Source of the DNA: Candidatus Woesearchaeota archaeon
Lineage (GTDB): Archaea; Nanobdellota; Nanobdellia; Woesearchaeales; BM511
Reading direction: 5' to 3'
NCBI GenBank assembly: GCA_018221135.1
Contig: JAAOYB010000050.1
Location: 527 to 64,526 of the forward strand
Length of the DNA: 64,000 nucleotides
The translations under genes were made by a program, and so were the position numbers. Positions 4,715-14,293 of the stretch are shown here, piece after piece. A model generated the notes under the pieces. It did no database searches, was not told where the DNA came from, and worked only from the letters and a program-made list of their open reading frames with translations. How positions within the stretch are numbered: position 1 is the stretch's first letter; each line of letters begins with the position of its first letter.

Positions 4715-6616
4715 TTGGTTTTTATACAAAAAGCGCTTTACATAGATGCTAATAATAAGAGTTCTAAAACAAAAAAAATAGATGCTCCAGAAATCATGGG
4801 CCCAGTCGATTTTGGGGTTAGAGAATACGAAAAAGACAAATCAGTTTTTTGCTTTGGAACCGGGATTCTTTCAGGAAGCATAATCCCAGGTACTAGGCGT
4901 TTGGTGTTCACAGGTCTTAGCCCATTATGGAAAAATTTCTATATCAGTACTATGGGCGGCGCTGCTTACGTCTTTCATCGTTTGGGCATAAACTATGTGA
5001 GTATAAAAGGAAAAACTCCCAATCTTAGCGTCTTAGAAATAAACAGGAAAAAAGGAAAATTAAGCGTTTCTTTCCACGACATAAGCCCTGATAAGATATG
5101 GGAGGGTTACAAAAAAGAAATCGGTGTTTACGCGCTCCAACAATACATATATGATAATTACGCAAAGAATTTCAAAGATGATTGCAGGATACTAATAACT
5201 GGTCCTGCGTCTCAAAGAACTAATTACGGCGCCATCGCTAGCGCTCCTATCGGACGTGACGGCGTGATAAGCCACGTTGATTGCTGGGCTGGCAGAGGCG
5301 GGTTTGGAAGCAAATTATTACAAGACCACAATGTTGTAGGCATCATTTACGGAGGAGACTTCGAAGAAGACAAATCCTCACCGCTAAAAGACGTTAAACT
5401 AATAGATTCAGTCTTCGAAGAAGGCATGGGTAAGAGGATGATGGCAGCTGATATGGACGCAACCACTAAGTATCGCTACGACCCTAGTTTTAAGAGCGGA
5501 GGAACCCTCGGCGTTAATTTTAGCAGGCTTAAGAGTTGGATGTTTAGTTTTAATTACGGCTCGGTTAAGTTCTCAGAAGGGCAACGCTTAGAATTATGGG
5601 AAGAATTCATACAAAACCATTACTTAAAACAATTCAACGAAGAAACAATACAGACAAAACAACAAAAGCATTGCGGGGAGCCTTGCCCCGCGGTTTGCAA
5701 GAAGATGAATGATAAATACAAAAAAGATTACGAGCCATACGAAGCGCTCGGACCTAACATGGGCGTTTTTGACCAGCGAGCCGCTGAGAAGCTTAATCGC
5801 TTTGCTGACGCGATGGGTTTTGACGCTATACAAATAGGAAGCGTTATTAGCTTCGTAGCCGAAGCGATAAACCAAGCATTAATACCTAAAGAAGACTTAG
5901 GTCTTAGTATCACTCCTAATTTCTCAAAAGAAAACTTTGACGTATTAACAGATAGTATGAACAACGCCGACTTCGGAGTGGAACTCATCAAAAAAATAGT
6001 TTATGACCATGAATGTGTTAGTCTTAGAAAAGGCTTGCGAGTCGCTGCAAAAGAATTAGACCAAAAATACCCCGGGGTTCTCAACCTAGCGGTTTACAAC
6101 GCTTTCGGAGAGGATGGCTGCATAGTTCCTAACCAGTACTGGGTTCCAGGAATGTTCAGCCCCATGCCTATAATGGGTAAGTACTTTGAGTATTACGGAG
6201 CTAATTATTTACCGCCAAGAGAGCTTGGCAAAAAAAACGTTGAGCGTATGATCCTCGAATTATATAGTGATAACGGAGGGATTTGCAGGTTTCACCGAGA
6301 ATGGGTTGAGAAATTATTAGAGCCATTAGTAAAAAAAGTATTAAAAGTAGATGTTGCGTATCGAATCAAAGATTATCATAGCCATCATAAAAGATTAGCT
6401 CAACTCATCAACCTAGGTAACAAGCCCGTTTTTTGGGAGACTGAGCGCGTAGTTGACATAATAAAGGCTTACTTAGAAAAAGTCTACGAATGCGAAGAAG
6501 AACACAAAGAAGAAGTACGAGCTTGGGTTGAGAAGTTCGAAGCTGATAAGTGGGAAGCAGCCAAGTTGTACTGGGAAGAATTAAAAGATGGTATGAACGA
6601 AGCATTCAGCGACTAA
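4715..6616 (+). CDS. aldehyde:ferredoxin oxidoreductase (AOR) family protein, tungsten/molybdopterin type
   Basis: AOR N-domain-like 'GRGGFGSKLLQD'; central 'CGEPCPAVCKK ... EPYEALGPNMGVFD' resembles the AOR 4Fe-4S Cys motif followed by GPEYE...G.N.G..D; ~630 aa. Confidence 0.55.
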   Translation: MVFIQKALYIDANNKSSKTKKIDAPEIMGPVDFGVREYEKDKSVFCFGTGILSGSIIPGTRRLVFTGLSPLWKNFYISTMGGAAYVFHRLGINYVSIKGKTPNLSVLEINRKKGKLSVSFHDISPDKIWEGYKKEIGVYALQQYIYDNYAKNFKDDCRILITGPASQRTNYGAIASAPIGRDGVISHVDCWAGRGGFGSKLLQDHNVVGIIYGGDFEEDKSSPLKDVKLIDSVFEEGMGKRMMAADMDATTKYRYDPSFKSGGTLGVNFSRLKSWMFSFNYGSVKFSEGQRLELWEEFIQNHYLKQFNEETIQTKQQKHCGEPCPAVCKKMNDKYKKDYEPYEALGPNMGVFDQRAAEKLNRFADAMGFDAIQIGSVISFVAEAINQALIPKEDLGLSITPNFSKENFDVLTDSMNNADFGVELIKKIVYDHECVSLRKGLRVAAKELDQKYPGVLNLAVYNAFGEDGCIVPNQYWVPGMFSPMPIMGKYFEYYGANYLPPRELGKKNVERMILELYSDNGGICRFHREWVEKLLEPLVKKVLKVDVAYRIKDYHSHHKRLAQLINLGNKPVFWETERVVDIIKAYLEKVYECEEEHKEEVRAWVEKFEADKWEAAKLYWEELKDGMNEAFSD

Positions 6617-6618
6617 TC

Positions 6619-8022
6619 TTATTCATTGTTTAGTTTTCTTATCTTGTGCCCCAACCAAATAATTGCTACTATATTAGCGGTTGCTCCGCCTATCACCATT
6701 GACCAAGCAACGCTTAGATACCCAAAGCCTAGTACGAAAACAAATATGTAACCAAGAGGTATCGCGACTAACACCGTTCTTACCAAGTTTATTATAAGTC
6801 CTGGCAAACCATACCCCATTCCTTGCATCGCGCGACTAATAATCATGCCAACAGCCATTAAAGGAAAAGTCAAGGTGTCTATCCTAAGATAAGGAGCTCC
6901 TAAGCTTAGGAGGTTTTGGTCTGGTGTGAATATTCTAAGAAACAGTTTAGGAAACAAAAAGAAAACAACACCTATCAGCGTTGTGAAAAGAACTGCTCTG
7001 CTAATAGCAAACCACACAATGCTTTTTAACAAGTCGTAGCGTTTAGCTCCAAAAAACATACCCACTAGTGTAAGTGTTCCTATACTAAAAGCGACTATTG
7101 GCATTATAGCTACGCTCTCAAGGCGAAAAGCCATACCTGCCGCGGCTACGTAATCAACCCCGAAATGGGAGAGGTACCTATTCAAAAATATTATGTATAA
7201 ACTCATCAAAAGCATCATAACCGTTGCCGGCGCTCCTACTGTGAACATCTCCTTTATTATTTTTGGACTAAAACTAAAACTCTTAGTTGTTAGTTTCAGA
7301 TAAGACTTCTTCCTAAGAGTGTATATGTATATTACTAAGCCGATAAAAAAACTGATGACTGTTGCCATAGCGGCGCCTCTAACACCAAAACCCAAGTAGT
7401 ATATGAATATTGGGTCGAGTATGATGTTTATGACAAGGCTCGTTATTTGTATCTTCATAGGAGTCTTGGTGTCTCCTTGAGAGATAAAAAAGTGATTTAT
7501 CATAAATGAGGGGAACATAAAAAATACGCCGATGAGTATTATCCTCATGTACCCTACTGATAATGGAAGGACTTCTTTTGTGGCTCCAAACAAATTAAAC
7601 ATTGGCTCCATAACCAGGTTCCCTACTAAGAAAATTATTAGTGCTAAGCCAATACTAATAAATAATCCGTGAATCGCCGTGTTCTCTGCGTCATCTTTTT
7701 TCTTTGCGCCTAAAAACCTGCTGATAAGGCTTCCCATACCAGCTCCGAGACCGCTGTTAAGAGCGATTAAAATAAAGAATAATGGGAAGCTAAATGTTAG
7801 AGCTGCAATTGCTTCTGCGCCGAGTCTTCCAACAAAAGCCGTGTCTACTATGTTGTACGCGGTTTGGACCATCATCGCGATGATTATTGGAAGCGCGATT
7901 GTGAACAAAGCTTTTTTTGGATTCTTAATGAACTCATCAACTCTGTTCTTCTCAGTCATCCTATGAAGTTTTGGCAGATGCCTTATAAGTTTTTGGTTTA
8001 AGCCAAAGCTTTTTAAATTCAT
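6619..8022 (-). CDS. MATE/MOP-superfamily efflux transporter
   Basis: 12-TM-like hydrophobic profile; N-terminal MATE signature 'ALPIIIAMMVQTAYNIVDTAFVGRLGAEAIAAL'. Confidence 0.65.
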   Translation of the reverse strand: MNLKSFGLNQKLIRHLPKLHRMTEKNRVDEFIKNPKKALFTIALPIIIAMMVQTAYNIVDTAFVGRLGAEAIAALTFSFPLFFILIALNSGLGAGMGSLISRFLGAKKKDDAENTAIHGLFISIGLALIIFLVGNLVMEPMFNLFGATKEVLPLSVGYMRIILIGVFFMFPSFMINHFFISQGDTKTPMKIQITSLVINIILDPIFIYYLGFGVRGAAMATVISFFIGLVIYIYTLRKKSYLKLTTKSFSFSPKIIKEMFTVGAPATVMMLLMSLYIIFLNRYLSHFGVDYVAAAGMAFRLESVAIMPIVAFSIGTLTLVGMFFGAKRYDLLKSIVWFAISRAVLFTTLIGVVFFLFPKLFLRIFTPDQNLLSLGAPYLRIDTLTFPLMAVGMIISRAMQGMGYGLPGLIINLVRTVLVAIPLGYIFVFVLGFGYLSVAWSMVIGGATANIVAIIWLGHKIRKLNNE

Positions 8023-8043: not shown

Positions 8044-8547
8044 ATGAAGAACAAAATAGCGGGTTACATAATAATTGGGATAGCACTCCTTTTTGGCTTG
8101 ATGATTTGGATGTTTAACAACGCCTTATCAACTATTGTGAGCGTTGCTTGCACTCACGGCCCAGATTGCCCTATGTGGAGAACTATCAATGTGCAAACCA
8201 GTATTGGTTTGGCAATAATGATTTTCATAATCTTAATAGGTGTTTACTTAATCTTTTTTGGCTTCGAAGAAAAAATCGTGACAAAGACGAGAACGGTTCA
8301 CAGACAAGTCAACCCGAATAAGCCAAGCAAAAAAAACTACGAGAAAATTATGAACAAATTAAGCGTTGACCAAAAAAAAGTTCTTGAAAAAATTATTTCT
8401 TCGCAAGGCAGCATGTTCCAATCAGAGATTGTTAGTTCAACAAAGCTTAGCAAAGTAAAAGTTACACGCATCCTTGACCGCTTAGAAGGACTGGGCTTAG
8501 TTGATAGGAAGCGGCGCGGCATGACTAACATAGTTATTCTTAAGTGA
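8044..8547 (+). CDS. membrane-anchored winged-helix (MarR/TrmB-like) transcription regulator with extracytoplasmic Cys/His/Met loop
   Basis: Two N-terminal TM helices flanking 'CTHGPDCPMW'; C-terminal wHTH 'LSVDQKKVLEKII...VTRILDRLEGLGLVDRKRRG'. Confidence 0.55.
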   Translation: MKNKIAGYIIIGIALLFGLMIWMFNNALSTIVSVACTHGPDCPMWRTINVQTSIGLAIMIFIILIGVYLIFFGFEEKIVTKTRTVHRQVNPNKPSKKNYEKIMNKLSVDQKKVLEKIISSQGSMFQSEIVSSTKLSKVKVTRILDRLEGLGLVDRKRRGMTNIVILK

Positions 8548-8646
8548 AACTAGTTTCACAACATCTTTTATAAGGCGTTTCTAATTAACAAATTTCTATA
8601 ACAAGCATAATTGTTAAAAATTACGTTTGGGTGGTGATGTGAAAAA

Positions 8647-8856
8647 ATGGTTGTTACAAAACTAAAAACACAAAGCATGCATTGCGTTAGTTGTGAAGCA
8701 ATGATAAAAGACGCGCTCATGGATTTAAAAGGAGTGTACAGTGCTAAGGCCAATCATAAGAGGGGATTGATCAAAGTTAATTATGATGATTCAATAATAG
8801 AAAAAGAAAACCTCAAAAAAACTATAGAAAAAGCAGGTTATAAAATAAGAGAATAA
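8647..8856 (+). CDS. copZ: copper chaperone CopZ (heavy-metal-associated domain protein)
   Basis: 69 aa HMA fold with 'MHCVSCE' MxCxxC motif. Confidence 0.8.
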   Translation: MVVTKLKTQSMHCVSCEAMIKDALMDLKGVYSAKANHKRGLIKVNYDDSIIEKENLKKTIEKAGYKIRE

Positions 8857-8861
8857 AAAAA

Positions 8862-10346
8862 ATGGTTTACGAAAAAGAAACAATAAAAGTAAAAGGTATG
8901 ACTTGTACTAGTTGCGAAGACATAATAAAAAAAGAAGTAACAAAAAATAAAGGCGTAAAAAGTTTTGAGATTGATTACGCAACCCAGATAGGCCTAGTAA
9001 GTTTTGACCCAGAAAAAACAAGTATGAAAAAAATACTGGGAATAATTGAAGAAGCTGGTTACAACCCAAAGATTATAGGGGGGAAAGCTGAAAAAGATTT
9101 TAGTGGTTCCTATGCTATTAACAAAAAAGTAGTAGGGTACGCTATAGGAATAGTTGGGTTTTTATTAATCGCGTATTTCGTTTTTGGAATAGTTGATACA
9201 GTAAGGCTTCCTCAAATAAGCCAGAACATGGGTTACGGCTTGTTATTATTAGTGGGGTTACTCACTGGTTTTCATTGTGTTAGTATGTGTGGAGGATTCG
9301 TTCTCGGATACACCACAAAGAACTCTAAAGAAGGAAAAAGCAATTATAATGATCATTTCATGTACGGAGCAGGGAAAACAATATCGTACACAATAATAGG
9401 GGCGGGGTTTGGATTACTGGGTTCAATATTTGCTTTCACACCTCTCATGAGAGGAGTAGCAGGCATCTTAGCAGGATTATTTTTAATAATTTTTGGTCTT
9501 AACATGCTCGGATTCTTATCGCCTCTTAGACGTCTCAGACTAAGAACACCAAAGTTCGTATCACGTTTTGTTCGAACCGAATCCACTAAGCACAAAAGCC
9601 CACTTGTTATTGGTTTGCTTAACGGATTAATGATTGCGTGCGGACCACTCCAAGCAATTTATATCATGGCCGCAGGAACCGGGAGCGCGTTAGAAGGCGC
9701 AAAAGTGTTGTTCTTATTCGGTTTAGGAACATTGCCTGTCATGCTCGGTTTTGGTTTCTTAGCGAGTTTTCTGAGCAACAAAGCCACCAATAAAATACTA
9801 AAAGCGAGCGGTTTTGTAGTCATACTACTTGGTGTCATAATGGTTAATAGAGGCTTGGCTCTTAGCGGTACCGGATTTGATACTAACACCTTAGTTGCTA
9901 ACGTATTAGCTAGTAACGACGCATCTTTAACAGATGAAGGAAGCGCTTTAGAATTCGAAGATGGTTACCAAATTATTAGGATGACTGTTAATAGGTATGG
10001 TTGGGAACCAGACAAATTCGTACTAAAAAAAGGTGTTCCTACCAAGTGGATTATTGATGGCGTAGAGATTAATGGTTGTAACAACGCAATCCAAGTACCA
10101 AAATACAACTTAAAATTCGACGTTGAGTACGGCGAGCAAGTAATTGAGTTCACACCAACAAAAGAAGGAGTGATTAGTTGGAGTTGTTGGATGGGCATGA
10201 TACCTGGAGTCTTCGTTGTAAAAGAAGATATTGATTTAAGCGATGCTTCCGCGGTGCAAGGCGCTCTTGAAGAAGTAGTCGTCCCAAGCGGGGGAAGCTG
10301 TGGCGGCGGAGGCGGCGGTGGTTGTGGCTGCGGAGGAGGAAGATGA
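8862..10346 (+). CDS. HMA domain / DsbD_2 (TauE-like) membrane permease / cupredoxin-like domain fusion with C-terminal Gly-Cys-rich tail
   Basis: N-terminal 'GMTCTSCE' HMA; TM core with 'GFHCVSMCGGFVLGY' and 'ACGPLQAIYIMAAG'; C-terminal beta-rich 'WSCWMGMIPGVFVV' cupredoxin_1-like; tail 'SCGGGGGGGCGCGGG'. Confidence 0.65.
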   Translation: MVYEKETIKVKGMTCTSCEDIIKKEVTKNKGVKSFEIDYATQIGLVSFDPEKTSMKKILGIIEEAGYNPKIIGGKAEKDFSGSYAINKKVVGYAIGIVGFLLIAYFVFGIVDTVRLPQISQNMGYGLLLLVGLLTGFHCVSMCGGFVLGYTTKNSKEGKSNYNDHFMYGAGKTISYTIIGAGFGLLGSIFAFTPLMRGVAGILAGLFLIIFGLNMLGFLSPLRRLRLRTPKFVSRFVRTESTKHKSPLVIGLLNGLMIACGPLQAIYIMAAGTGSALEGAKVLFLFGLGTLPVMLGFGFLASFLSNKATNKILKASGFVVILLGVIMVNRGLALSGTGFDTNTLVANVLASNDASLTDEGSALEFEDGYQIIRMTVNRYGWEPDKFVLKKGVPTKWIIDGVEINGCNNAIQVPKYNLKFDVEYGEQVIEFTPTKEGVISWSCWMGMIPGVFVVKEDIDLSDASAVQGALEEVVVPSGGSCGGGGGGGCGCGGGR

Positions 10347-10807
10347 GAAAAGAACTCCTTTTTTTAATTATTATAAGCGCGTCCTTAATTATTACTGGGT
10401 GCACATCAAGTAACAGCGATGGTCTAAGCGGAAAAGTAGCCAGTGACTTAGGAAGCTCAGGAGATGGTTTTGTTAGTATTCCTCTAAGCGACTTATCAAG
10501 TACTTCTAAGTTCTACGAATACGAAGTCGGAGGAGTTAAAGTAAAGTACTTCGCTGTTCTTGGAAGCGACGGAGCGCCAAGAACTGCTTTTGATGCTTGC
10601 GATGTGTGCGGAGGAAGCAAAGGATACCAACAAATAGGAAGCGATATTCGATGCAGAAACTGCGGAAGAGTGTTCAGCATTGACGGCTTAGGAAGCAAAA
10701 ATAAAGGTTATGGTTGTTGGCCTAGTTACTTACCACACCAAGTAGTAGGTGATGACGTCTTATTAAACATAAACGATATAAAAGCAGGCAGTTACAGATT
10801 CGCCTAA
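10343..10807 (+). CDS. Cys-rich lipoprotein (zinc-ribbon-like 'CDVCGG...CRNCG' metal-binding domain)
   Basis: Start ATG overlaps upstream stop (ATGA); lipobox-like 'LIITGC'; four Cys in two CxxC pairs. Confidence 0.5.
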   Translation: MRKELLFLIIISASLIITGCTSSNSDGLSGKVASDLGSSGDGFVSIPLSDLSSTSKFYEYEVGGVKVKYFAVLGSDGAPRTAFDACDVCGGSKGYQQIGSDIRCRNCGRVFSIDGLGSKNKGYGCWPSYLPHQVVGDDVLLNINDIKAGSYRFA

Positions 10808-10946
10808 AAAAAAGATATTGATATGAGGTAAAAAAATAAAATGGTAAAAGATGATGAGTACCTAAAAATAAACAAAGTGGTTTTGTGGCAAGGCGCTACA
10901 GCAATATTAGGAATTCTTTTGATAATCTCAGTTTACACCGGGGGTT

Positions 10947-11624
10947 TTGGAGGAAAAAATGATTCTGCTTCTTGGTAGAGTAGTTGATGATCAAAAAAAC
11001 TTAGAAGCGGCTAAGCCGGCTCAGCCAAGCCAGCCTAGCCCTTCGCCCATCCCTACTCCAAGTCCCAGCGCGGCTCCTACTCCGAGTCCGAATCTTTATA
11101 TGAAGACATTAATCGATGACGACGCAGTAAAAGGGGATCCTAACGCGGTGGTGACTATTGTTGAGTGGAGCGATTTTGAATGCCCGTTCTGTGCTAGGTT
11201 TTATTCAGAGACGCTAGGACAAATACTTAGTGAGTACGTCGATACTGGCAAAGTTAAGTTTGTGTATAGGGATTACCCTCTTAGTTTCCATCCTCAAGCT
11301 CAAAAAGCCGCTGAGGCTGCGGAGTGCGCAGGTGAACAAGATAAGTATTTTGAGATGCATGACTTATTATTTGAGAAAGGCGTAAAAGGAGGCGTTGCTA
11401 GTTTTAAGCAGTTCGCGTCTGACATAGGTCTTGACACAGCGAAGTTTAATACTTGTCTGGATACTGGTGCTATGGCGTCTGAAGTAGCTAAGGATATGAG
11501 AGATGGTCAAAGCCTTGGTATTCGAGGAACACCCGGCTTCATCATTAATGGTCAACTAGTTAGCGGGGCTCAGCCTTTCAGCGCGTTTAAACAAGTAATC
11601 GATGCCAAACTAGCACAAGGATAA
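10947..11624 (+). CDS. DsbA-family thiol:disulfide oxidoreductase (thioredoxin fold, 'CPFC'); N-terminal TM anchor appears to lie in another frame (10841..10978)
   Basis: 'WSDFECPFCARFY' active site; Pro/Ser-rich linker; upstream 45-aa TM-containing ORF 10841..10978 in -1 frame joined across an A6 run. Confidence 0.7.
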   Translation: MEEKMILLLGRVVDDQKNLEAAKPAQPSQPSPSPIPTPSPSAAPTPSPNLYMKTLIDDDAVKGDPNAVVTIVEWSDFECPFCARFYSETLGQILSEYVDTGKVKFVYRDYPLSFHPQAQKAAEAAECAGEQDKYFEMHDLLFEKGVKGGVASFKQFASDIGLDTAKFNTCLDTGAMASEVAKDMRDGQSLGIRGTPGFIINGQLVSGAQPFSAFKQVIDAKLAQG

Positions 11625-11631
11625 AAAAAAC

Positions 11632-11666
11632 TTTTTGTTTTTTTTTCTCTTATTTTTTTGATTTTG
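11632..11666 (+). terminator. oligo-T tract after dsbA-like gene, putative terminator
   Basis: T-rich 35-nt run following stop at 11624. Confidence 0.3.
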
Positions 11667-11693: not shown

Positions 11694-11710
11694 AACATTT
11701 AAATATTTGA
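11694..11710 (+). promoter_or_regulatory. putative archaeal TATA box / palindromic operator 'ATTTAAATATTT' upstream of arsR (leaderless arrangement)
   Basis: TATA-like palindrome ~25 nt upstream of ATG 11728. Confidence 0.35.
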
Positions 11711-11727
11711 ACAACTATTCAACTATT

Positions 11728-12072
11728 ATGGATGTGGAAACAATAAAAAAAATTAAGCAGTTTTTTACTGCGCTATCAGATGAAACTCGTCTAAAAATTT
11801 TATTAGAGCTTATAAAAAGTCCAAAGAATGTAAATGAGATTCATAAAGCAATTCCAAACATAACTCTTTCAGCTGTTTCACATCAACTAAAACAAATGAA
11901 AGATATAGACATAATTTTTTATGAAAGAAAAGGAAGAGAAAAAATTTATTCTTTATCTGAAAAATTTTGTTGGTGTATACTTCGTGATGCTACAAATCAT
12001 TTTAAAAGAGGCGGAAAAAACTGTCCTCATTGCATAGAAATGCAAAAAGAGCATATTAAAAAAAGTAAATGA
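11728..12072 (+). CDS. ArsR/SmtB-family metal-responsive transcriptional regulator
   Basis: HTH 'LSDETRLKILLELIKSPKNVNEI...LSAVSHQLKQMKD'; C-terminal 'CPHC'; ATG at 11728 preferred over track TTG at 11707; gene is markedly more AT-rich than its neighbours. Confidence 0.75.
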   Translation: MDVETIKKIKQFFTALSDETRLKILLELIKSPKNVNEIHKAIPNITLSAVSHQLKQMKDIDIIFYERKGREKIYSLSEKFCWCILRDATNHFKRGGKNCPHCIEMQKEHIKKSK

Positions 12073-12088: not shown

Positions 12089-14293
12089 ATGAGTAAAAAA
12101 AGTGTTAATATTAAGGGTATGCACTGCGCTAGTTGCGTTTTTAGAGTAGAAAAAGCTATTAAGACAGTTGAAGGAGTCAGCAATGCTAATGTTAACTTAG
12201 CAACTCACAAAGCAAGTTTTGATCTAAGCGATGAAGCTAACCTTGAAAAAGTGGCGGTTGCTATCAAAAAATCTGGGTACGACGCGCAAATAGCGCAAGA
12301 AGCAAAAACAAATGATGATTCTGAAAAATTAGAAAGAGAAAAAGAAATCAACACACTTAAGACAAAAACTTATACTGCTTTGCTATTAAGTATTCCTCTT
12401 CTTTACTTCGCCATGGGAGCTCACGTCGGCCTACCAACTTTTTTTAGTGGTAAAACCATGGCGTTAGTACAATTCTTGATAACTACTCCTATAATACTTG
12501 TTGGTTACGAGTTTTACACTAAAGGTTTTATGAGCGTATATAAAGCCAAGACTGCTAATATGGACACCTTAGTAGCGGTTGGCACTGGAAGCGCGTATGT
12601 TTACAGCGTGGCCTCTAGTATCATCGGAAATTATGACAGCTTGTTTTTTGAAACCGCTGGAATCCTTATAGCATTCATACTCCTAGGCAGGTATTTAGAG
12701 GCTAACGCCAAGGGTAAGACTAGTGAAAGCATCAAGAAATTGATGGGTTTAAAAGCCAAGACAGCCATTGTTATCAGGGGCAAAAAAGAGTTAGAAATCC
12801 CAATTGATGAAGTAGTAGTAGGAGACATCGTACTTGTAAAACCAGGTCAAAAAATCCCTGTTGACGGCGTAGTCATAAACGGTCACTCATCAGTTGATGA
12901 ATCCATGATTAGTGGAGAGAGCATCCCTGTTGAGAAAACTAAAGGCGACAAAGTAGTTGGGGCAACGATTAACAAAACAGGGAGTTTTAAGTTTAAAGCA
13001 ACTGGGGTTGGAAGCGACACAGTCCTAGCTCAGATAATAAAATTAGTAGAAGAAGCACAAGGAAGCAAAGCCCCCATTCAAAAACTTGCTGATGTCATAG
13101 CAGCTTATTTTGTGCCAGTAGTTATTAGCATAGCAATTATTAGTAGCGGAATATATTTTTTTGTTAACGGATTCGCTTTTGCTCTCTCAATATTCGTGGC
13201 TGTCTTAATCATTGCGTGTCCGTGTGCTTTAGGTCTTGCTACGCCAACAGCGATAATCGTTGGCACAGGACTAGGAGCAGAGAACGGAGTGCTTTTTAAG
13301 AGCGCTGAGAGCCTTCAAGAAACAAGAAAGATAAGCGCTTTAGTCTTTGACAAAACAGGCACTATCACAAAAGGAGAACCAGAAGTAACAGACGTGATTA
13401 ATTTTAATAAGTTTAGTGATAGAGAAGTCTTAAGATTCGCAGGCATAGCTGAGAAGAACTCCGAGCACCCTTTAGCCGACGCGGTTCTAAAAGCTACTAA
13501 GAAGAAAAAAATAAGTGTTGTCAGCCCATCTAGTTTTAATAGCATCACAGGAAAAGGCGTGGTTGCCAACCTAAAAAAAGACAAGATAATCATAGGTAAA
13601 ATCTCCTTATTAAAAGAGCACTCAATAAGCACTAAAAAAGCAGAAGACTCTGTTTCAAAACTTGAAAGCCAAGGAAAAACTGTTATCTTAGTAGGCAAGA
13701 ACAAAGAATTAATTGGGGTGATAGGAGTAGCAGATACTTTAAAACCTCATAGCAAAGAAGCAATACAAACAATTAACTCTTTAGGAATCGATACTTTCAT
13801 GATAACAGGAGATAATAATAAGACCGCTAACGCAATCGCTAAACAAGTAGGCATCAAAAATGTAATCGCTGAGGTGATGCCAAACCAGAAAGCCTCCGAG
13901 ATTAGAGGTCTTCAAGAAAGCTATCTAAGCGTTGGGATGGTAGGTGACGGGATCAACGACGCCCCTGCATTATCCCAATCAGACGTGGGCTTCGCAGTTG
14001 GTAGCGGGACAGACGTAGCAATTGAATCTGGAGACGTCGTATTAGTAAGAGATGACCTTCGAAGCGTGCTTACCAGCATCGAATTATCAAAGTATACTTT
14101 TAGAAAAATAAAACAGAACTTGTTCTGGGCGTTTTTTTATAACGTGCTTGGAATCCCCTTAGCAGCAGGTGTTCTTTACCCTTTCACCGGGTTTTTATTA
14201 AATCCCATCATCGCTGGTGGAGCCATGGCGTTTAGCAGTGTGAGCGTTGTTAGTAACACATTACTTATGAAGAATTACAAAGCCAAGTTTTAA
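12089..14293 (+). CDS. copA: copper-translocating P1B-type ATPase CopA
   Basis: N-terminal HMA 'GMHCASCV'; 'CPC' in TM6 '[11 protein letters not shown]'; 'DKTGTIT'; 'GDGINDAP'; 734 aa. Confidence 0.92.

Follow-up and report, generated by a model that had tools for sequence, protein, structure and literature searches.

We report a candidate membrane-tethered transcription regulator in a 64,000-nucleotide stretch of DNA (the window) from Candidatus Woesearchaeota archaeon, contig JAAOYB010000050.1. The gene at 8044-8547 encodes a small protein in which a transmembrane (TM) hairpin with a cysteine pair at its tip precedes a winged helix, and the end of the gene overlaps a conserved palindrome that lies ahead of a copper- and thiol-related operon. 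Comparison of homologous sequences makes it very probable that the protein is a one-component regulator that would bind this palindrome together with a nearby half-site and control the adjacent operon. For the whole chain, in which the hairpin tip also senses extracytoplasmic Cu(I) or Ag(I) directly, we estimate a probability of about 0.6. The link of the regulator family to copper is strong, and the combination of membrane tethering with control of a copper/thiol operon is well supported.

Domains, topology and conservation of the regulator

The 167-residue product is identical to an NCBI protein annotated as 'MarR family transcriptional regulator [Candidatus Woesearchaeota archaeon]'. Its parts were delimited with the help of an AlphaFold2 (AF2) model, which used an input alignment of 75 homologues and has a mean predicted local distance difference test (pLDDT) score of 82:

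8044-8547, + strand: regulator coding sequence, 167 aa, TM hairpin plus C-terminal winged helix (ATG start, Pfam, homologues, AF2)
8056-8115, + strand: TM helix 1, residues 5-24 (hydropathy; AF2 helix 2-35; G7, F24 and N25 invariant)
8116-8202, + strand: predicted extracytoplasmic loop or helical stalk, residues 25-53, 29 residues (low Lys/Arg content relative to its flanks)
8149-8178, + strand: hairpin-tip motif C36-T-H38-G39-P-D-C42-P-M44-W45, candidate sensor site (conservation)
8203-8265, + strand: TM helix 2, residues 54-74 (hydropathy, AF2)
8266-8340, + strand: basic cytoplasmic linker, residues 75-99 (conserved E75, E76, T80, Q88, K96 and Y99; AF2 confidence low)
8341-8544, + strand: minimal winged helix-turn-helix, residues 100-167 (Pfam DUF7343/MarR, AF2, Foldseek)

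Hydropathy gives two hydrophobic segments, at about residues 5-24 and 54-74. The AF2 model has a helix at residues 2-35, a turn at 36-42, a second helix at 43-72, a low-confidence linker at about 75-99 and a winged helix at 100-166, the last composed of three helices and two strands with the polypeptide terminating right behind the wing. Since the turn coincides exactly with the sequence CTHGPDC, the cysteine motif is placed at the tip of a helical hairpin, which reaches about 11 residues per helix past the hydrophobic cores. An earlier note on this DNA had described two TM helices around a short loop, CTHGPDCPMW. Both helices hold, but the loop comprises 29 residues (25-53), of which the ten quoted are residues 36-45.

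The winged helix matches Pfam DUF7343 (E 3e-10; 40.2 bits against a cut-off of 27.6; residues 109-166, profile positions 4-61 of 62) and the core of Pfam MarR (PF01047; 30.7 bits against a cut-off of 24.6; residues 117-157 only). An NCBIfam scan returned merely sub-threshold winged-helix matches (Lrs14, Sta1 and Csa3) and no family name for the regulator. Sequence-profile and Foldseek searches of the PDB matched the winged helix alone, none at E<=0.001, and found the full architecture in no solved structure. The Foldseek matches were MarR and ArsR proteins only, MarR and OhrR being the best, with 60-96 columns aligned to MarR proteins at a TM-score of ~0.35.

The distribution of charges predicts the topology. 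In the 75 close homologues, Lys and Arg residues number 2 in the four-residue N-terminus, 1.2 in the 29-residue loop (Asp and Glu, 1.3) and 5.8 in the 21 residues past TM2. Among 115 divergent full-length representatives, their density per residue is 0.24 at the N-terminus, 0.05 in the loop and 0.25 past TM2. By the positive-inside rule, the N-terminus and the winged helix are predicted to be cytoplasmic and the loop extracytoplasmic. Cleavage of TM1 as a signal peptide is unlikely, given its 20-residue hydrophobic core and the conserved G7, G18, F24 and N25, and the loop would lie outside either way. The earlier note had proposed a membrane-anchored one-component DNA-binding protein with a cytoplasmic winged helix behind the TM helices, a reading that a cytoplasmic cysteine loop would have undone. 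The two TM helices, the Pfam winged-helix matches and the Lys/Arg bias all agree with its proposal, and the loop is placed outside. With two hydrophobic helices and a winged helix past TM2 on the predicted cytoplasmic side, the protein has the make-up of a membrane-tethered one-component regulator.

Homologues of the regulator are numerous, far beyond chance. Clustering at 90% identity leaves at least 910 of them at E<=1e-3, and at 50% identity there are 596 cluster representatives with E<=1e-10. The best 120 of these at least 910 homologues measure 162-207 aa, mostly 166-172 aa, are 55-66% identical over 85-100% of the query, and all carry PF24034. Relatives are encoded in at least 517 species-level GTDB genomes, the best 80 of which mostly bear DPANN names (Woese-, Pace-, Nano-, Aenigmat-, Micr-, Parv-, Iain- and Alti-archaeota); a minority of these 80 are labelled Methanosarcinales, Thermococci, Methanobacteriota or plain 'archaeon'.

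The loop motif is the signature of this family. In the alignment, C36, G39, C42 and M44 are present in 75/75 homologues, W45 in 73/75, H38 in 72/75 and G46 in 69/75, and the tip residues are as strongly conserved as the DNA-binding helix. An unconserved loop, which would have told against a sensing function as first proposed, is thus not what the homologues have. In a small subclade, Glu replaces H38. At least two Cys residues occur in the inter-TM loop of 114/115 divergent representatives, spaced by 3-8 residues, and the commonest pairs after the second Cys are P-H (25 representatives), P-M (24), P-Y (10), L-H (7) and P-F (7). Since the cytoplasmic part contains no Cys in the query and no conserved His in the 75-homologue alignment, the loop is the sole obvious ligand site.

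A conserved candidate operator downstream of the regulator gene

The stop codon of the regulator gene forms part of a palindrome that abuts the promoter of the next gene. The following elements were identified:

8010-8017, + strand: predicted TATA box TTTTTAAA of the regulator's own promoter, centred ~30 nt before the ATG
8545-8558, strandless: palindromic operator O1 TGAAACTAGTTTCA, whose first three bases are the regulator's TGA stop codon
8566-8573, + strand: TATA box TTTTATAA of the operon promoter, in a tTtATAAgg block conserved in the 80-site alignment
8577-8582, + strand: third operator half-site GTTTCT (consensus GTTTCA), lying downstream of the TATA box and upstream of the predicted transcription start

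The palindrome has a single match in the 64-kb window, even with two mismatches allowed. We then surveyed 80 homologous loci (1.17 Mb), allowing up to one mismatch, and compared the counts with those in shuffled sequence. The palindrome is present downstream of the regulator in 67/80 loci, and a total of 72 sites were found in the 1.17 Mb, against 0-1 in the shuffles. Its position relative to the regulator stop codon is as follows:

Overlapping the stop codon: 20 of 80 loci
Within 60 nt of the stop codon: 24 of 80 loci
61-1200 nt past the stop codon, usually with one gene inserted: 19 of 80 loci
Still further downstream: 4 of 80 loci

An alignment of 80 distinct sites gives the consensus TGAAACTAGTTTCA-tacaat-NN-tTtATAAggt-GTTTCa, and the third half-site starts exactly 18 nt past the palindrome in 75/80 of them. 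With a leaderless downstream gene, the palindrome would lie at about -53 to -40, abutting the TFB-recognition element (BRE), the TATA box at -30 to -23 and the third half-site at -21 to -16. The palindrome is repeated in degenerate form in the 14 nt up to the end of the third half-site, a stretch that overlaps the TATA box. In most loci, the first gene past the operator encodes a heavy-metal-associated (HMA) protein; otherwise it often encodes a Cys-rich or uncharacterised exported or membrane protein, and DUF411/CopG is found further down some such operons. The region that the earlier note had offered as a 'copZ promoter' does carry the conserved operator. The candidate operator is newly recognised and highly conserved, and no description of it or of the regulator family was found in the literature searched.

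From this arrangement we infer that the regulator protein itself would bind the operator. Alternatively, some other factor could bind the palindrome, or the palindrome could have no regulatory role, and the protein would regulate something else or not bind DNA, a reading to which the 9/80 loci without a site despite enough flanking sequence lend some weight. We regard it as highly improbable. The site overlaps or abuts the regulator stop codon in 44/80 loci and also follows divergent subfamilies with the same winged-helix sequence; ArsR-type genes were found in a minority of the loci compared, and no other regulator recurs among the called genes of the six loci looked up. As for a non-regulatory RNA, 6-bp arms around a 2-nt spacer would make a poor hairpin. 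An RNA hairpin or terminator was rejected on the ground of this spacer of just 2 nt and the fixed spacing of the third half-site. A scan for bacterial sigma-70 promoters and intrinsic terminators gave counts at the shuffle level, with a model that is irrelevant to an archaeon.

The direction of regulation is a guess. A palindrome ahead of the BRE usually points to an archaeal activator, and a site past the TATA box but before the transcription start to a repressor. We favour repression, which metal would relieve, because the half-site and the TATA-overlapping pseudo-palindrome occupy the core promoter.

The regulator gene itself appears to be expressed differently. A TTTAAA-type box lies ~25-32 nt upstream of the regulator ATG in most of the 80 loci, and the position of the TATA centre in the window implies a leaderless or near-leaderless mRNA. 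Because the gene has its own TATA box and no operator was found upstream of it in most of the 80 loci, it looks constitutive rather than autoregulated. In two loci, L031 (~9950) and L072 (9951), an operator does lie upstream of the regulator gene itself. Locus L034 contains tandem regulator paralogues (1055-1540 and 1600-2100) with the loops TCFIDGECVYEE and CTEGLSCPMWK and the same operator between them, and in L031 and L034 the variant with Glu in place of His38 is the first gene downstream of an operator.

Copper association and the proposed signal

The regulator gene is consistently found with copper genes. Each of the six homologues that were looked up is the first gene of a same-strand cluster whose last gene encodes an HMA P-type ATPase. 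For a wider count, we considered 62 GTDB species-level loci that had at least 5 kb of downstream sequence or in which CopA had already been seen. Full-length CopA is encoded 0.7-8.4 kb downstream on the same strand in 53/62 of these loci. Together with the operator, which mostly precedes HMA genes, this bears out the copper association that had been suggested from the window. An ArsR-type gene is present in a minority of the compared loci, and in most of them copA follows in the same cluster without one; the membrane regulator is therefore the one regulator consistently at the locus. Mercury resistance, prompted by MerP/MerT-like NCBIfam matches, was rejected as the main explanation: no MerA was found among the called and compared genes, and the ATPase signature is that of Cu/Ag pumps.

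We then propose a mechanistic model in which the regulator would serve an operon for defence against copper or silver and for envelope thiols. The N-terminus would lie inside, and the two long helices would form a TM hairpin whose tip, with C36 and C42 as well as H38, M44 and W45, protrudes outside. A basic linker of ~25 residues would join TM2 to the minimal winged helix in the cytoplasm. The TM hairpins may hold a dimer or higher oligomer, allowing the winged helices to bind the palindrome at 8545-8558, next to the BRE and TATA box, as well as the third half-site, located past the TATA box and ahead of the transcription start. The Cys pair at the tip would bind a thiophilic metal, with Cu(I) or Ag(I) as the likeliest candidates, and this would alter helix packing or oligomerisation, such that promoter occupancy shifts. 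We infer direct Cu/Ag binding by the loop, and Cu(I)/Ag(I) is favoured because the tip is the sole conserved candidate ligand site and two thiolates with His, Met and Trp nearby suit both ions. CusF uses His, Met and Trp.

Several observations weigh against this model. The operons contain DsbA-, DsbD-, VKOR- and thioredoxin-like genes, which fit a thiol-redox signal equally well. Distant subfamilies keep the Cys pair but not the His or Met, having CPH, CPY, CPF and CLH variants instead. Among metagenome loci with enough flanking sequence, copA was found in 6/15 loci without the core loop, as against 10/13 core-motif loci. One operator is common to all loop subtypes, which leaves the specificity of paralogues unexplained. 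The copA gene of the window appears to have an ArsR-type regulator and a promoter of its own. Moreover, the linker from TM2 to the winged helix is predicted to be flexible (pLDDT ~50-60), and conformational signalling through it is not obvious.

One possible alternative is a thiol-disulfide switch, in which the Cys pair, as dithiol or disulfide, would signal oxidative or disulfide stress on the outside of the cell, perhaps through oxidation catalysed by copper, instead of taking up metal stoichiometrically, and tune envelope thiol repair with copper export alongside. E. coli MarR, CadC and Vibrio ToxR signal through cysteine oxidation. Only the Cys pair is universal across the superfamily, its spacing ranging over 3-8 residues and the residue after C-P varying among M, H, Y and F, and genes for DsbD_2, DsbA-like, thioredoxin-like and VKOR-like proteins are frequent in the operons. 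Nevertheless, we consider such a switch rather unlikely, since no operon content is as constant as the HMA and CopA genes (53/62), the M44, W45 and H38 residues of the core clade look like soft-metal ligands that a disulfide would not need, and operons without copA start with metallothionein-like Cys-rich peptides or include DUF411/CopG.

The flexible linker in the AF2 model would also suit a hairpin that merely tethers the protein through a structural disulfide or a tight turn, with the signal supplied by a second protein (for example CopA, as in transporter-coupled sensing, or an HMA protein of the membrane) or by proteolytic release of the DNA-binding domain. CadC-LysP co-sensing and the regulated intramembrane proteolysis of tethered factors are precedents, and nearly every locus also encodes CopA or a membrane protein with an HMA domain. 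However, the tip is conserved to the same degree as the DNA-binding helix, exceeding what a tether needs, the partner membrane proteins vary across loci while the tip motif does not, and no conserved protease gene was seen in the loci looked at. A mere anchor is thus improbable.

The divergent subfamilies bear on the identity of the signal. Those with other loop types (C-x5-C-P-M-Y, C-x(3-8)-C-P-H and C-x6-C-P-Y) differ little in their winged-helix sequence and share the operator. In copA-less loci, the operator-proximal genes encode small TM-anchored Cys-rich peptides (...NCGxxTCGxxxGxCxCxK), CxYCCG...CGCxH proteins and HCPLC membrane proteins, and DUF411 (CopG-like), DsbA-like and VKOR-like proteins are encoded further along or beside these operons. 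The common theme of the copA-less operons, as predicted from their genes, is exported thiolate-rich proteins of soft-metal type together with thiol-disulfide enzymes. Since all subfamilies share TGAAACTAGTTTCA and the TATA-flanking half-site, it is tempting to speculate that paralogues that differ in their tips could combine several signals from outside the cell at one set of promoters. Tentatively, the family may represent a new structural class of membrane-integral metal-sensing transcription factor, widespread in the mostly DPANN-labelled genomes recovered, that would respond to Cu(I)/Ag(I), or to other soft metals with CPH, CPY or CLHE tips, and pass the signal from outside through the TM hairpin to the winged helix.

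If direct metal sensing is true, it would amount to extracytoplasmic metal sensing by one polypeptide in small-genome archaea. The protein and its operator would, moreover, be the first pair of this kind to be defined that is shared by the DPANN-labelled lineages recovered, useful for regulon prediction in uncultured lineages. The operator overlapping the regulator's own stop codon means that a membrane-tethered factor would be made beside its proposed DNA target, and a 167-aa protein with a 14-bp operator could serve as a compact biosensor part.

Among soluble regulators, MarR shares some features: the Pfam cut-off for its winged-helix core is exceeded, and MarR and OhrR proteins head the fold matches. 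In E. coli, MarR is a copper-responsive regulator that works through oxidation of Cys residues. What the protein lacks are the two dimerisation helices, N- and C-terminal, by which the soluble MarR fold of about 140-160 aa is defined; in the AF2 model, a TM hairpin and a disordered linker precede the winged helix and nothing follows the wing. CueR holds Cu(I) between two loop cysteines, C112-x7-C120-P, at a helix end. This resembles the C-x5-C-P loop at the tip of the helical hairpin, which apparently controls the same kind of P1B-1 ATPase system; CueR, however, is soluble and cytoplasmic, has a MerR-type N-terminal helix-turn-helix (HTH) and activates by DNA distortion, and no sequence or fold relation to the regulator was detected. 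Extracytoplasmic copper in bacteria is sensed by two-component systems. The logic of CusS/CopS, in which copper or silver is sensed outside the membrane and export genes are induced, is what we propose for the regulator, but CusS/CopS systems are two proteins with a phosphorelay, whereas the regulator is one polypeptide without a kinase or receiver domain in Pfam.

By function, the protein belongs with the membrane-tethered one-component regulators, and its domain order, winged-helix type and sensor all differ from those of the ToxR/CadC-type and ArnR proteins. Like the ToxR/CadC/TcpP-type and ChiS/TfoS membrane regulators (PMC6320335, PMC11856585), it would be a membrane-resident DNA-binding factor with an extracytoplasmic sensing part; those proteins work as dimers, and CadC and ToxR use periplasmic cysteines. 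ToxR-type proteins have an N-terminal OmpR-type winged helix, one TM segment and a large C-terminal periplasmic domain, whereas here a hairpin of two TM helices opens the protein, sensing would fall to a loop of just 29 residues, and the winged helix resembles MarR/DUF7343. With this reversed order, two TM helices and no Trans_reg_C match in the Pfam scan, the regulator falls outside the ToxR-like family; unlike the bacterial ToxR group, it is archaeal and hence would act at a TBP/TFB promoter. ArnR/ArnR1 of Sulfolobus acidocaldarius, as cited in PMC13286277, is likewise an archaeal transcription factor with a TM anchor. ArnR differs in its N-terminal HTH and C-terminal TM segments, in its control of archaellum genes, and in the absence of a Cys-pair loop and of a metal context.

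The usual regulator beside archaeal copA and chaperone genes is the Lrp/AsnC HTH plus TRASH protein CopR/CopT (PMC5498576). CopR/CopT are soluble with a TRASH metal-binding domain, and the regulator has neither an AsnC-type HTH nor a TRASH domain in Pfam. It also lies outside ArsR/SmtB, with no HTH_5 or HTH_20 match, unlike its neighbour at 11707-12072, and no Cys in the cytoplasmic part. CopY/BlaI/MecI, CsoR, MerR/CueR and Lrp-TRASH CopR were found neither in the Pfam and NCBIfam scans at E<=0.01 nor in the PDB sequence and fold searches. According to a 2024 review, metal sensors occur in at least 12 structural families of one-component regulators, and the single mention of 'membrane-anchored' that was found in it refers to the copper-binding lipoprotein CopL, not to a regulator (PMC11672702). 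The topology had been called uncommon for copper regulators, and indeed no membrane-integral copper regulator was found in the literature searched.

Neighbouring genes in the window and in homologous loci

The genes that follow the operator in the window are listed below:

8647-8856, + strand: HMA metallochaperone, CopZ-like, first gene past the operator (Pfam HMA, E 3e-14)
8862-10346, + strand: fusion of an HMA domain, a DsbD_2 membrane domain and a C-terminal region, with a Cys/Gly-rich tail ...SCGGGGGGGCGCGGGR (Pfam)
10322-10807, + strand: FtrD-like protein (PF10080), probably a lipoprotein, true start likely the ATG at ~10343 (Pfam)
10841-11624, + strand: DsbA-like thioredoxin-fold protein, apparently split by a frameshift (Pfam; comparison with locus L060)
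11707-12072, + strand: ArsR/SmtB-type metalloregulator (NCBIfam HTH_metalloreg, 60 bits against a cut-off of 55)
12089-14293, + strand: P1B-1 (Cu+/Ag+) P-type ATPase, CopA-like (HMA CxxC, CPC, YN, MxxSS and DKTGT motifs)

By established classification, CPC, YN and MxxSS are marks of Cu+/Ag+ P1B-1 pumps. The arsR-copA pair is probably a separate unit under the ArsR-type regulator: long T-tracts (T9 and T7; ~11630-11660) precede a TTTAAATA box, itself located ~27 nt upstream of an in-frame ATG (11728), an arrangement suggestive of a terminator and a separate leaderless unit with its own TATA box. For arsR, the true start may lie downstream of the annotated TTG (11707). Since arsR-copA is probably separate, the membrane regulator would directly control the HMA, HMA-DsbD_2, FtrD-like and DsbA-like genes.

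The C-terminal region of the fusion protein at 8862-10346 is homologous to its counterpart in related operon proteins, and the fusion recurs in many loci; the FtrD-like gene recurs in 14 loci. The frameshift in the DsbA-like gene lies near an A-run at ~10955-10962. It leaves a TM anchor (...VVLWQGATAILGILLIISVYTGGFGG) in the open reading frame (ORF) 10841-10978, which aligns with the N-terminus of the intact L060 homologue, and the remainder, in another frame, in the ORF 10947-11624. This split could be a sequencing error or a real disruption.

Elsewhere in the homologous loci, Cys/Gly-rich tails recur in operon proteins: SGGSCGGGGGGGCGCGGGR, SGGCGCGSSCGGGSCCSR and CCGGGGTCGSTGGCGCGSY (window 8862-10346; L013 10558-11334; L020 10574-11515). 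Operon proteins of 260-330 aa combine an N-terminal HMA domain or CC motif with a 'GLxPHxGC' membrane domain and a C-terminal HMA-like 'PCPGH' domain, and are mostly without a Pfam model. VKOR-like membrane proteins, identified by sequence inspection, are encoded just upstream of the regulator in L031 (8393-8890) and in L072, where a thioredoxin-like CPHC protein adjoins the VKOR-like one (the two genes being at 9060-9425 and 9432-9959); they add to the thiol-oxidoreductase theme. In two loci of the C-x5-C-P-M-Y subfamily, cysteine desulfurase, DUF1858 and NifU-like genes lie just upstream on the same strand (L091 1731-4001; L092 2045-5384). In copA-less loci, the first gene past the operator encodes a TM-anchored peptide of 64-87 aa with a metallothionein-like C-terminus (...C..C...C.A..NCG..TCG...G.C.C.K) and no Pfam match. 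The genes for these metallothionein-like peptides are:

L092 6571-6780
L141 8852-9046
L082 10581-10826
L098 522-785
L087 10536-10775

Upstream of the regulator in the window, a MATE-family transporter is encoded divergently at 6619-8022 (- strand). Its real start is probably an internal Met at ~7959, which would leave ~84 nt for both divergent promoters. Further upstream of the MATE-family gene lies a 633-aa ORF at 4715-6616 (+ strand).

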